From positions 416,691-480,690 of the forward strand of contig CAWEPK010000012.1 of assembly GCA_963810935.1 (NCBI GenBank): a stretch of DNA of 64,000 nucleotides. The letters run 5' to 3'. A model generated the notes under the pieces. It made no database searches, had not been told where the DNA came from, and saw only the letters and a list, made by a program, of their open reading frames with translations. Every line of letters begins with the position of its first letter. The stretch's first letter is position 1. The translations under genes and the position numbers were made by a program. Source of the stretch: an uncultured delta proteobacterium (lineage in GTDB: Bacteria > Desulfobacterota > Syntrophorhabdia > Syntrophorhabdales > WCHB1-27). Shown here piece by piece: positions 3,450 to 10,070 of this stretch.

Positions 3450-3475
3450 GAATATTCGGTAGTGTCTCAGTTTGA
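3450..3475 (+). repeat. Left target-site duplication (GAATATTC, 3450-3457) plus left IR
   Basis: Read directly from the sequence. Confidence 0.95.
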
Positions 3476-3517
3476 CGGATTGTTTTGTTGTTGATGAGTG
3501 AAGAAGGCTACGGCCTA

Positions 3518-3526
3518 TGTTATAAT
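3518..3526 (+). promoter_or_regulatory. Extended -10 promoter (TGtTATAAT), probably giving a leaderless mRNA
   Basis: TATAAT at 3521-3526 with 7 nt between it and ATG 3534; no RBS. Confidence 0.6.
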
Positions 3527-3533
3527 AAATATT

Positions 3534-3764
3534 ATGCCTAAAGGACCAAGGGGGCAGAAGAGACCCGCCGATGTCATAGGCAATGCCATAGTGGTTGCCA
3601 AGATTGCTACCGGCGAGATTACTGAAGAAGCCAACGGCAAAGAGTATGCCCGCGAGGGTGGGCGGAAGGGCGGAGCACTCAGGGCTAAGAAACTATCTTC
3701 TGCCAGACGAAAAGAAATTGCTCAAAAAGCCGCCCAGGCCCGCTGGGGCAAGAAAGAAAATTAG
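3534..3764 (+). CDS. Small basic IS-associated protein (histone H1-like / KGG-type tail)
   Basis: MPKGPRGQKRPADVIGNAI..IATGE and GRKGG..RAKKLS..RRKEIA.KAA.ARW, a pattern I recognise from genes beside this transposase type. Confidence 0.8.
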   Translation: MPKGPRGQKRPADVIGNAIVVAKIATGEITEEANGKEYAREGGRKGGALRAKKLSSARRKEIAQKAAQARWGKKEN

Positions 3765-3909
3765 TCCCATTTCCCCGCATAAATAAACGATTTTTGCTTT
3801 CTGGAAAATTCTTAGGAAAAAAAGGACTTGCTTTTTACACTGCTTCTCATGCAGAATATATACAGTTCTGCTGTAGGGAGATAGAAAAGGTAAGGGAGGA
3901 GGTGGTTGA

Positions 3910-4515
3910 TTGCTAAACGAAGGTGACTTTACAAGGGTTATTGGGAAGTACTTCGAAGCGATTCAGGAGTGCATCGAGGCAGGGTTCAACCGCTGGTTTG
4001 CGGTACCCGCAGAGTTTAGGATCGCGGCGTCTCCACGTACAAGGGCAAATTTTATTCACGATTTCATTCGCGATGAAGCTCTGAGGCGTTTTTTGCATGT
4101 TCCAGAGATAGAGTTATTGGAAGTCCGGGGGCTGTTTTTGGTCAAGTTCGGGGAAGATGTATTATTGAGGTTCAAGAAGTTTGATAGGTATTTCCGTCCG
4201 CAAAATATCCCTACTGGTCAGACAAAATTGTTCTCACGGCAGGGAGTACAGGAATCCCTTTTTGGAGTTCCTTTTGCTACGAAGGTTATTGCCGGGTATC
4301 AAACGGATAAGGCACACGCTGAAATCCAATGGACGGGCATAACATGCCCCGAAGGAAAGCATCTACATTGGTACATTAACTTCGAAAAACCTTCCACCCA
4401 AGTTCTTCCTTTCCAGACTTATCAAGAAACAACACAAGAGTCTGGCCCCGTCGCAGAACCGAGGCCGAAGGAGAATTTGAAAAACAATGAGAAGAGAGGA
4501 GACAAAGAAATTTAA
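3910..4515 (+). CDS. Hypothetical protein, candidate toxin/effector
   Basis: Strong GGAGG RBS before TTG; overlaps the start of the XRE-peptidase gene; motifs RTRANFIHD, LRFKKFD, IAGY. Confidence 0.7.
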   Translation: MLNEGDFTRVIGKYFEAIQECIEAGFNRWFAVPAEFRIAASPRTRANFIHDFIRDEALRRFLHVPEIELLEVRGLFLVKFGEDVLLRFKKFDRYFRPQNIPTGQTKLFSRQGVQESLFGVPFATKVIAGYQTDKAHAEIQWTGITCPEGKHLHWYINFEKPSTQVLPFQTYQETTQESGPVAEPRPKENLKNNEKRGDKEI

Positions 4516-5563
4516 TCCAGACATGCTGATCATGGCGCGCAAATCAAGGGGGTTAACACAAAGCGATTTAGCAACTGCTCTTGCAATGACTTCATCTCAC
4601 CTATCTAAAGTTGAGGGTGGGATGACACCTTTTCCAGAATCGAAACTGGACGAATTATCGAATGCGCTCAAGTATCAGGAAGATTTCTTTTACAGGGGGG
4701 AAAGGTTCTTGGGGATAGGTCCGGCGTTTGTGTACCATAGAATGCGGCAAAGTGTTTCAAGCAAGCTAATAGAGAAGATCGAAGCACAGGTGAACGTCTA
4801 CCGTATACACATTGAGAGGCTTCTCCGTTCCGTAGAAATCGCGGAATGCAAAATCCCTTCTTACGATTTGGATGAACTGGGGAACAATGCGACACCGGAA
4901 GACGTTGCACGTAACATTCGTGCCTCTTGGTTTATTCCGAGTGGTCCGATAATGGACCTTGCCCAAGTCATAGAAGCTGCGGGCGGAATTGTCATTCCAT
5001 ATGACTTCGGTACGATGCAGATTGACGGTGTGAGCCAACGTGTTCGGCCACTTCCGCCTTTGTTCTTCATAAACAAGAATATTCCTGGCGATAGGTGGCG
5101 GTTTTCGCTGGCCCACGAACTCGGCCACATAATTCTTCACGATAGTCCACGTCACGATATGGAAAAAGAGGCTAACCGCTTTGCGGGTGAGTTTTTAATG
5201 CCCGCATGTGACATCGGACCGTCCGTGTGTTCACTCGGCTTCGGTAAGTTATTCGATCTCAAAATGTATTGGAAATGTTCGATGCAAGCGATCATCAAAC
5301 GGGCCAAAGACATGCAAACGATATCGGAACGGACTGCGTACTATCTTTTCGCCCAACTATCTAAGGCAGGGTATAGGACCAAAGAGCCGGGCGAATTTCC
5401 ACGAGAGCAACCTACGTTATTGTCAAAGATTATTGAGGTATATCTGAACAAGCTTGGATATACAGCAGAGGAAATGTGTAACCTGTTGGCGATTTACTCC
5501 GGGGATTTTAATACGCTTTATGCCGATACCTCAGAGAAGCGTCATTTGAGGCTGGCAGACTAA
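4487..5563 (+). CDS. XRE-family HTH + ImmA/IrrE (Peptidase_M78) zinc metallopeptidase
   Basis: N-terminal ARKSRGLTQSDLA...LSKVEGG HTH; RFSLAHELGH (HExxH) and EKEANRFAGEFLMP. Confidence 0.93.
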   Translation: MRREETKKFNPDMLIMARKSRGLTQSDLATALAMTSSHLSKVEGGMTPFPESKLDELSNALKYQEDFFYRGERFLGIGPAFVYHRMRQSVSSKLIEKIEAQVNVYRIHIERLLRSVEIAECKIPSYDLDELGNNATPEDVARNIRASWFIPSGPIMDLAQVIEAAGGIVIPYDFGTMQIDGVSQRVRPLPPLFFINKNIPGDRWRFSLAHELGHIILHDSPRHDMEKEANRFAGEFLMPACDIGPSVCSLGFGKLFDLKMYWKCSMQAIIKRAKDMQTISERTAYYLFAQLSKAGYRTKEPGEFPREQPTLLSKIIEVYLNKLGYTAEEMCNLLAIYSGDFNTLYADTSEKRHLRLAD

Positions 5564-5633
5564 GGGGGCACTTATGTAAAAAAATAGGGGTAAACGACCC
5601 GGTACCCAACCATCGCGTTTACCCCTGACCAAT

Positions 5634-5707
5634 ACCCCTGTAGCTCAAACGGACAGAGCGGCTCCCTCGAAAGACGCTGGCTCCGGGTTCGAGCCCCGGC
5701 AGGGGTA
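5634..5707 (+). tRNA. Non-canonical tRNA-like RNA (nominal anticodon CGA; possible pseudo-tRNA)
   Basis: Acceptor ACCCCTG/CAGGGGT, D-arm GCTC/GAGC, T-arm CCGGG-TTCGAGC-CCCGG; anticodon stem has 2 mismatches; 5-nt variable loop; no encoded CCA. Confidence 0.75.
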
Positions 5708-5762
5708 CTCCTATATTCTATACATATTTCTCGTGAAAAAAAAGTTTTTCTTAACCTGAAAA

Positions 5763-5797
5763 TTATGCTTGACACATAAGCATAAATTTCATATAAT
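5763..5797 (+). promoter_or_regulatory. Consensus sigma70 promoter for the transposase with an overlapping inverted-repeat operator
   Basis: TTGACA (5769-5774)-N17-TATAAT (5792-5797); TTATGCTT-N7-AAGCATAA (5763-5785); ATG at 5804 without RBS. Confidence 0.85.
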
Positions 5798-5803
5798 AAG
5801 AAC

Positions 5804-6640
5804 ATGCACAAGCTGCCCATATCAAAGCGAGTCCAAATCCTTCAGATGCTTTGTGAAGGCGCTTCCATGCGGTCTATCTCCAGAGTCGCGGACGTATCCA
5901 TAAACACGGTAACCAAGCTGCTTGTGGATGCCGGTAAAGCCTGCTCGGACTATCAGGACAAGGCCCTCCGTAACCTGCCCTGCAAGCGAATCCAGGCCGA
6001 CGAAATTTGGTCGTTCTGCTATGCCAAGGAAAAGAACGTCCCCGACGACAAAAAGGGCTGGTTCGGTTATGGCGGTGTCTGGACCTGGACGGCGATAGAT
6101 GCTGACAGCAAACTTATCGTTTCATGGCTGGTAGCCGACCGGGGGGCAAGGGCAGCGATGGAGTTCATAAGCGATCTGGCCGAGAGGCTTCAGAACAAGA
6201 TGCAGCTTACCACGGACGGCCACAAGGTCTATTTGAACGCGGTAGAAAGAACCTTCGGCGGCGAGATAGATTATGCGATGCTCCAGAAAATCTATGGGAC
6301 GGAACCGGAAGGCGAAAAGAGATACAGCCCTGCGAAGTGCTTAGGGGCAGACAAGTCGATCATCTGTGGACGGCCCGACGAAGAGCACATATCAACAAGC
6401 TACGTCGAGCGGCATAATCTCACCATGAGGATGAACATGAGTCGGTTTACTCGCCTGACGAACGGATTTTCTAAGAAGGTCGAGAATCATTGTCATGCCC
6501 TCGCCCTCTGCTTCATGGCTTACAACTTTGTGCGGATTCACAAGACCTTGAGAGTAACCCCCGCGATGGCCGCCGGAGTGACGGACAGACTGTGGACGAT
6601 GGAGGATATAGTAAATTTGATCGATGAGAATTCAAACTGA
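5804..6640 (+). CDS. IS1-family DDE transposase
   Basis: N-terminal HTH ([12 protein letters not shown]); QADEIW, TTDG and [13 protein letters not shown] catalytic motifs; RVTPAMAAG tail. Confidence 0.95.
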
Positions 6641-6657
6641 GACACTACCGAATATTC
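6632..6657 (+). repeat. Right IR plus right target-site duplication (GAATATTC, 6650-6657)
   Basis: Read directly from the sequence. Confidence 0.95.
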
Positions 6658-9995: not shown

Positions 9996-10070
9996 AGGCG
10001 CGTAGCTCAACGGGAGAGCGCTACCTTGACACGGTAGAGGTCAGGGGTTCAACACCCCTCGTGCCTACCA
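9996..10070 (+). tRNA. tRNA-Val(GAC)
   Basis: Complete cloverleaf; anticodon loop TTGACAC; encoded CCA; upstream TTGACA at 9949. Confidence 0.97.

Follow-up and report, generated by a model that had tools for sequence, protein, structure and literature searches.

An arginine-type tRNA gene with a slipped anticodon arm in an IS1-like transposon and its relatives on mobile DNA

The locus is an intact IS1-like cargo transposon

The window analysed here is a stretch of 64,000 nucleotides from the genome of an uncultured delta proteobacterium (contig CAWEPK010000012.1). It contains a carrier element of 3192 bp (positions 3458-6649), with 48% G+C against 57% in the flanks. The element is bounded by perfect 18-bp terminal inverted repeats (left end, 3458-3475 on the + strand; right end, 6632-6649 on the - strand) and by an 8-bp target-site duplication, GAATATTC (left copy, 3450-3457; matching right copy, 6650-6657). 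These ends and the duplication mark it as an IS1-family-like cargo transposon. They surround the tRNA gene at 5634-5707, bearing out the initial annotation, which had placed a tRNA-like RNA inside a transposon. All four open reading frames (ORFs), both ends and the target duplication are intact. Outside the element, we observed an imperfect palindromic, REP/MITE-like repeat of about 130 bp (2484-2612), present in dozens of copies genome-wide, and an ordinary host tRNA-Val(GAC) gene (9996-10070; ARAGORN, Rfam).

The genes of the element lie on the + strand. The first ORF (3534-3764) encodes a small basic protein conserved in these elements; its start was set at the ATG common with a relative, the longest frame beginning at 3498. 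The second (3910-4515) encodes a 201-aa protein, a putative toxin, and is overlapped by a gene (4487-5563) for an HTH and Peptidase_M78 protein resembling the antitoxin/regulator RmrA (PADLOC RmrA, E 5.8e-57). An A-tract with an 11-12-bp hairpin follows on the same strand (5578-5627; arms 5586-5596 and 5616-5626; folding z -4.8) and stops 6 nt ahead of the tRNA gene, with a U-tract on the - strand and none on the + strand. A pairing of this hairpin with the acceptor stem, seen by eye, was not supported by folding and probably reflects G/C runs.

Behind the tRNA gene, a perfect sigma70-type promoter (5763-5797, + strand; TTGACA at 5769, 17-nt spacing, TATAAT to 5797) ends 6 nt 5' of the transposase ATG and is overlapped by an 8-bp inverted repeat (5763-5770/5778-5785). 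The region 5763-5804 matches the promoter at 12 of 12 positions and would start a leaderless transcript at the transposase ATG; the inverted repeat over the -35 box could be an operator. The transposase (5804-6640) is an IS1-like DDE enzyme of 278 aa in a single ORF, with a Pfam match above the cut-off (PF03400, 28.1 vs 24.1 bits) and an NCBIfam IS1 match below it (65.5 vs 100 bits). Its residue 213 (6440-6442) is Ser (AGT), a position that is Arg in 96% of 97 relatives. This change may impair the enzyme, and the AGT codon could be read by an ACU-type sister tRNA, not by the tRNA of the window. The separate promoter of the transposase makes it more likely that the tRNA ends the cargo transcript than that it leads the transposase transcript. 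Integration bait, a use also raised initially, is unsupported, as the RNA is complete and lies within an element that has its own ends and a DDE transposase to move it.

The 201-aa protein belongs to a large unnamed family (1900 clusters at 50%). It received no name from Pfam, NCBIfam, PADLOC or solved structures, the PADLOC toxin models gave no relevant matches to 143 members of the family, and no viral or plasmid loci were found in searches with it. The predicted structure is confident (pLDDT 89). Foldseek returned no match at E<=0.001, and VIA-align gave only middling restriction-endonuclease-fold matches (NaeI, Z 6.5, rmsd 3.6, 127 aligned; EcoRV, Z 5.4), a weak likeness in the model that would neither assert nor exclude a tRNA nuclease. 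The suggestion that the RNA is a decoy for this toxin is argued against by its distribution: the toxin/RmrA pair flanks only 2 of the 44 loci of the tRNA family defined below (at a third, a related HTH-peptidase is present), and the same slot of an orthologous element is occupied by a tRNA with an intact ACU anticodon arm.

The tRNA gene folds as a class I cloverleaf with an irregular anticodon arm

ARAGORN called a tRNA-Ser(cga) at 5634-5708, and the Rfam tRNA model scored 49.3 bits on 5634-5707 (cut-off 29; E 1.5e-07), leaving 2 anticodon-stem positions unpaired; both results support a real cloverleaf. Together with family comparison, they define an arginine-type tRNA gene on the + strand. 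It has an acceptor stem of 7 bp (5634-5640/5700-5706), U8 and A9, a 4-bp D stem, a D loop with G18, G19 and A20 (5653), the loop letters CTCGAAA at 5666-5672, a 5-nt variable region, a 5-bp T stem with TTCGAGC and the discriminator A73 (A5707). The acceptor branch is 7/5, class I, and CCA is not encoded. The stems, loop, short variable region, A20 and missing CCA described in the initial annotation were thus all recovered.

The missing CCA was rejected as a sign of decay. It is absent from 11 of 40 other tRNA genes of this genome, including 3 of the 4 tRNA-Arg genes, and the host encodes a CCA-adding-type enzyme, so its absence means little; an ArgRS is encoded as well. Elsewhere in the genome, tRNA-Sec is encoded by three near-identical genes on separate contigs (C4, C6 and C11) and one CCA/poly(A) polymerase gene is matched three times, both probably duplications in the bin (7% contamination); a weak Rfam tRNA match (30.5 bits; G000:C8:693639-693712) next to a tRNA-Arg(TCT) was missed by ARAGORN.

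The anticodon arm (5661-5677, + strand) is irregular. In the standard register, only 3 of 5 stem positions pair and the arm has a folding energy of +1.7 kcal/mol. Alternatively, 5661-5664 pair with 5673-5674 and 5676-5677 to form 4 pairs with a bulged C5675 and an 8-nt loop, at -0.6 kcal/mol; the slipped form is thus favoured by 2.3 kcal/mol. Two triplets can be read in the arm, TCG at 5667-5669 (arginine reading) and CGA at 5668-5670 (serine reading). A Logan contig from one public DNA run spans 5451-5708 with no differences at a depth of 3.1; this run may be the source sample, so the identity rules out only a late assembly error in the arm. Among the public runs listed, no RNA run containing the region was found. 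DNA searches with the region against 22 family genomes, phages and plasmids returned only matches to ordinary Arg or other tRNAs.

The body of the tRNA points to arginine rather than serine

The arginine identity set of bacteria and the dependence of serine identity on a long variable arm are established (PMC9976931). The RNA of the window lacks the latter, with a 5-nt variable region and A73 instead of G73, and the earlier view that no complete serine identity is present holds. It carries A20 (A5653) and an A/G73 discriminator (A5707), as a canonical tRNA-Arg does, and departs from one in its anticodon arm, where 3 of 5 standard pairs replace a 5-bp stem with a 7-nt loop. When the anticodon arm is left out of the comparison, an Arg tRNA is the closest host match to the window's RNA and to 26 of 32 family members, in agreement with the Arg-like body noted initially. 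A20 alone was rejected as proof of arginine identity: 47 of 80 viral matches with that D loop are Thr(TGT).

The loop of the host's own Arg(ACG) is CTACGAA; without A34 it becomes CTCGAA. Judged from its sequence, the short-loop RNA is a tRNA-Arg(ACG) without its wobble base A34, or an Arg(UCG) lacking one U. The genome, 93% complete, yielded no Arg(UCG) gene. If numbering starts from the 3' strand of the stem, the triplet is U/C35/G36, and C35, G36, A37 and A38 take their normal places; standard numbering gives G35 and A36. Since the slipped register puts C35 and G36 in the arginine places, the serine call would be largely an effect of numbering. The initial statement that neither identity set is complete needs correction in this respect, the arginine set (A20, C35, G36, A73) being complete on paper in the slipped register.

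The irregular arm is shared with a related element

A homologous element, L014, was found in a genome of another family of the same order (1 of 95 other genomes searched). It has the same left end and proteins 71-76% identical, and its hairpin is that of the window with a compensatory change. Its tRNA keeps the same loop CTCGAAA and the same bulge, with U31 where the window has C31, and is truncated beyond the 5' strand of the T stem. Because this relative keeps the loop and the bulge, the odd anticodon arm is, on this comparison, inherited and not a decay of the window's copy. A complete orthologous element, L345, has the same ends, small ORF and A-tract hairpin, a homologue of the 201-aa protein (E 1e-40), RmrA (46%) and transposase (59%). 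Its tRNA slot holds an Arg-body tRNA with an ACU anticodon and a perfect stem. The hairpin is conserved 5-8 nt upstream of the tRNA in all three elements, with compensatory changes in L014 and L345.

A family of short-loop tRNAs pairs better in a register slipped by one base

We sought further members with a pattern consisting of a class I D arm and CTCGAAA. By inspection, the 26 matches in the genome collection comprised 9 A20-type tRNAs, 5 tRNAs of an array type located beside SPFH genes, 5 that resemble intron-split tRNAs and 7 lacking a tRNA body. The 9 are from records assigned by title to groups that include acidobacteria, Nitrospira, Gemmatimonadota, Gemmataceae, Alphaproteobacteria, deltaproteobacteria and Solirubrobacterales. 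With a related pattern, 48 matches were obtained from metagenomes; the statistics leave out 14 of them: 5 duplicates, 8 whose T arm or body was poor or absent (among them L188, which has a perfect slipped stem) and L171, which is array-like with a perfect standard stem. The remainder, the 9 genome loci and the window make up a family of 44, of which 32 are at <85% identity. The loop text, the spacing between loop and D stem, and the A at the last loop position were preset by the search itself, so constancy in these traits is no evidence.

The five array-type CGA tRNAs and L171 have perfect seven-base loops and were set apart as another class. The five (L021, L027, L028, L041 and L044; match at about 4001) are class I, with acceptor ends mostly unpaired, and sit in tRNA arrays upstream of SPFH/Band 7 genes. 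Among other irregular tRNA genes seen, group I intron-like sequence apparently splits L022-L025 and L036 directly behind U33; in L016-L018, which belong to phage tRNA arrays, a TCTCGAAA loop is combined with an inserted stretch in the anticodon arm.

Among the 32 non-redundant members, 113 of 160 stem positions form Watson-Crick pairs in the slipped register, against 89 of 160 in the standard one. Shuffled sequences pair less well than either register, whereas for shifts of -1 and +2 no clear excess over them was seen. Controls behaved in the opposite way: standard pairs prevailed over slipped ones in host tRNAs (176/185 vs 44/185), in phage or viral tRNAs with the same D-loop motif (150/190 vs 41/190) and in the ACU/GCU sisters described below (31/35 vs 11/35). 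Without exclusions, 28 of 45 distinct A20-type RNAs pair better slipped and 12 standard, with 5 ties. The slipped stem encloses a six-base loop, YUCGAA, or eight bases when 31:39 is open. Position 31 is T in 22 members, C in 7, A in 3 and never G. A viral scan for loops not followed by A gave two matches, closed by C31-G39 and A31-U39, which indicates that the base after the loop belongs to the stem; one of the two (L347) has a damaged acceptor.

Covariation was assessed in 17 of the 44 members, hand-chosen for diversity. Pairing reaches 98% in both the acceptor stem, where all 7 pairs show double changes, and the T stem, so the elbow and acceptor are preserved, as initially proposed, and under selection. 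For the anticodon stem, pairing is 67.5% and covariation 0.484 in the standard register, against 76.5% and 0.694 in the slipped one. The conclusion of the initial annotation that decoding has decayed was not supported: the arm is a family trait whose stem covaries one base out of register. The window's copy, with C31 opposite A and a bulge, ranks among the weaker members of the class. It is conceivable that the RNA has a second state that reads serine: YUCGAAA is a textbook loop for a CGA anticodon, many members are able to pair in both registers, and the standard overall length is kept by 26 of 45 distinct A20-type RNAs.

The class is not uniformly sound. Of the 45 distinct A20-type RNAs, 12 form fewer than 6 acceptor pairs and 18 have U or C as discriminator, and some members may therefore be inactive. 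A strong upstream hairpin is present in 12 of 30 members and absent in 18. In 310 further genomes of one phylum, no such short loop was found, which argues that the class is not a common decay of housekeeping tRNA-Arg. Viral contigs were also scanned for short-loop versions of other Arg anticodons. The 7 matches, too few to judge, comprised an amber-type tRNA in 4 copies, a possible Arg(CCU) variant, a member of the family and an odd match. A viral Arg-body tRNA at L216:2001-2032 is one base short before the loop, reading as Arg(CCU) with C33 or as an amber anticodon.

Irregular tRNAs occupy a slot upstream of IS1-like transposases

A transposase, the elements' small ORF or an integrase lies within 2.5 kb at 20 of the 44 loci, many of them on short contigs, and at none of 40 host tRNAs. 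IS1-like transposase or small ORF accounts for 11 loci, IS1595 transposase for 9 (one locus has both) and an integrase for 1. Other neighbours include DUF3800, PIN, Panacea, Schlafen, GmrSD, Vsr and XRE/M78 genes, and no partner toxin common across the family loci was found. The window's RNA is one member of a widespread class of arginine-body tRNA genes on IS1-like and IS1595 cargo transposons and other mobile DNA, which recurs in numerous bacteria of soil and sediment. Directly behind one short-loop tRNA and before an IS1595 transposase, a class II Leu-looking tRNA with a TGG (Pro) anticodon was observed (L035:4085-4183).

To survey the slot from the transposase side, IS1-like loci were taken from samples of four phyla (121 loci, 111 with enough upstream DNA). 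A tRNA-like match within 1.5 kb upstream was obtained in 30 of the 111; two were discounted (a normal Lys tRNA and a spurious call), leaving 28 elements with an irregular tRNA, 25 of them on the transposase strand. ARAGORN detected 24 of the 28, and a T-arm/acceptor rule alone the other 4. Eight are A20-type (ACU in 4, GCU in 3, a CCCGAAA loop in 1), and 5 of these 8 have a host Arg tRNA as nearest relative. Twelve are class I with a full D arm; 11 of them, from related and hence not independent lineages, have serine anticodons, 7 of these being ACU or GCU on an A20 body. By their sequences, these seven would satisfy the ArgRS rules outright. No anticodon outside arginine other than ACU and GCU has C35 and U36; their serine reading is thus dictated by the code and adds no independent support.

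Other occupants of the slot are class I tRNAs with GGA, UGA or AGC, Ser-like class II tRNAs with UAU or CAA, and forms that combine a short D arm with a stop-like loop. One of the last kind belongs to a second element of this genome, in which this tRNA-like RNA, with a UUA-type loop (G000:C7:397918-397987; L244:1395-1464), lies about 36 nt upstream of a second IS1-like transposase, with DUF3800-like and other cargo ORFs nearby. In these elements, the next gene upstream often resembles a coiled-coil and winged-helix protein; a Pfam DNA-binding or antitoxin domain was found in only 6 of 26 such genes tested. Recoding of the elements' own transposase was considered and rejected: no Ser stands at conserved Arg columns in 6 ACU/GCU elements, and the transposases of 7 CGA-loop elements show no shift in TCG or CGA use.

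Possible functions of the short-loop tRNA

Our best guess, tentative and held at slightly less than even confidence, is an arginine-charged, error-making tRNA, which would cause frameshifts at CGN codons or insert Arg at UCG. This assessment reflects the conserved stem and A20 and the make-up of the sisters, which seem designed for charging and miscoding; it is lowered by the poor acceptors, the missing trace of recoding in the transposases and the inactive tRNAs of Mukai 2017. Since only 70 nt, filled by the hairpin, separate the RmrA stop codon from the tRNA, the latter would be co-transcribed behind the toxin and antitoxin genes. RNase P would cut it out, with the hairpin guarding the new mRNA 3' end, the host would add CCA, and the host ArgRS would charge it through A20, C35, G36 and A73. 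On the ribosome, it could read the CG of arginine codons with a loop one base short, favouring -1 slips, or turn at its U and read UCG serine codons with arginine. Such an error-making or ribosome-hindering tRNA would be a regulated effector of the element's defence or addiction cargo, akin to same-slot sisters whose amino-acid identity and anticodon disagree. A broader extension, which we consider doubtful, is that wobble-less arginine tRNAs and their Arg-for-Ser, Ser-for-other and stop-reading sisters may form a mobile, regulator-controlled translation-sabotage kit, for example against infecting phage.

It is somewhat unlikely, but a serious alternative, that only the shape matters, the elbow and acceptor serving as an RNase P/RNase Z processing signal or as a decoy for tRNA-attacking enzymes. 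As a signal, the RNA would end and stabilise the cargo mRNA and shield the transposase promoter from read-through; as a decoy, it would be uncharged, or charged but unused, the slipped arm being kept since it bars translation. Very different bodies fill the slot (Ser-like class II, short-D-arm, U73 class I, Arg-type), with T arm and acceptor as what they have in common and a strong bias to the transposase strand (25/28). The hairpin is conserved in the window's element, L014 and L345 and strong in 12 of 30 members, and some of the tRNAs of Mukai 2017 are described as charged yet unused (PMC5389517). A processing signal, however, needs neither a covarying anticodon stem nor A20; the sisters have intact stems and non-random anticodons (11 of 12 class I serine, in related lineages), and the strong hairpin is missing in 18 of 30 members, with no partner toxin common across loci.

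We regard decay as improbable, whether of the window's copy as a pseudogene or of the class as inactivated descendants of ACU/GCU or ordinary Arg tRNAs. The weak arm (-0.6 kcal/mol), C31 in place of the U31 of L014, the transposase R213S change, the truncated L014 copy and the broken acceptors in 12 of 45 A20-type RNAs would fit it. Against it stand the perfect acceptor, D and T stems of the window's copy, the compensatory pairs in the slipped stem across many lineages, and the intact ORFs, ends and target duplication.

Least probable is an accurate arginine tRNA that tolerates the short loop and helps to read CGA, or all CGN, in AT-rich cargo. Engineered six-base loops (Anderson, 2002) can reportedly read triplets, and the slipped register offers a complete arginine identity in a genome where no Arg(UCG) gene was found; yet CGA is not raised in the element (4 of 66 Arg codons vs 5.8% in the host) or in transposases accompanied by this tRNA (12/139 vs 136/1387 without), and the sisters are mismatched tRNAs, not supplements. 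Anticodon stems of 4 bp are widespread and can work in bacteria, which usually read CGA with ICG (PMC13092985).

Comparison with known systems

Seven-base anticodon loops are near-universal, and a natural bacterial class with a covarying stem around a six-base loop would offer a ready test of short-loop charging and step size. The survey also gives the unexplained irregular tRNAs of Mukai 2017 a specific carrier and a position within it (28 of 111 sampled IS1-like elements). Annotation tools label such genes tRNA-Ser(CGA) or leave them nameless.

The RmrA-like HTH-protease relates the element to RosmerTA toxin-antitoxin and anti-phage systems, in which RmrA is paired with varied toxins (PMC10440598). 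The window's 201-aa putative partner differs in matching no PADLOC toxin model, and the element carries a tRNA, which the RosmerTA passages of that source do not mention. With canonical bacterial tRNA-Arg(ACG/ICG) and Arg(UCG), the RNA shares A20, C35-G36-A37-A38, A/G73 and the style of acceptor and T arm; unlike them, it is one loop base short or slipped in its stem and lies in a mobile context. The natural anticodon-loop exceptions named in passages of three sources are enlarged, none shortened (PMC7609411, PMC5009743, PMC11415595). With E. coli tRNASer3, the ribosome can accept a two-base codon and shift -1; this doublet decoding involves a normal seven-base loop at a near-cognate codon, not a shortened loop (PMC12202706). 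The literature search, with subscription papers and preprint supplements outside its scope, found no description of a short-loop class.

The tRNAProX of Streptomyces and Kitasatospora are proven natural mistranslating tRNAs, proposed to serve dedicated mistranslation (PMC10404621). They combine one amino acid's body with another's codon reading, as we propose for the window's RNA. They have proline bodies and normal loops and usually lie beside their own ProRS isoform (PMC10404621), whereas the RNA described here has an arginine body, an altered loop length and a transposon host whose four ORFs include no synthetase.

The closest parallel is the set of irregular tRNAs of soil and sediment bacteria in Mukai 2017, found near toxin-antitoxin genes and one transposon-related gene; several are inactive in translation, some being charged but unused (PMC5389517). 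They resemble the present tRNAs in this neighbourhood and in the disagreement of identity and anticodon. Allo-type UAU tRNAs, as in that study, occur in the same slot of the sampled IS1-like elements, and one 'tRNA2' entry of its supplement table has an ACU loop (PMC5389517). A string search of that table gave, among the matches listed, no GGATAGAGC or GGACAGAGC entry and no such D arm. Allo-tRNAs have an 8/4 or 9/3 branch and a long variable arm, whereas the window's RNA is 7/5, class I and arginine-type with a slipped arm. Irregular tRNAs near toxin-antitoxin genes are thus already known, and the short-loop class appears to be an addition to them. Overall, the sequence comparisons point to a real, conserved and mobile arginine-type tRNA with a slipped anticodon arm one base short, a variant of the irregular mobile tRNAs for which we propose a function.
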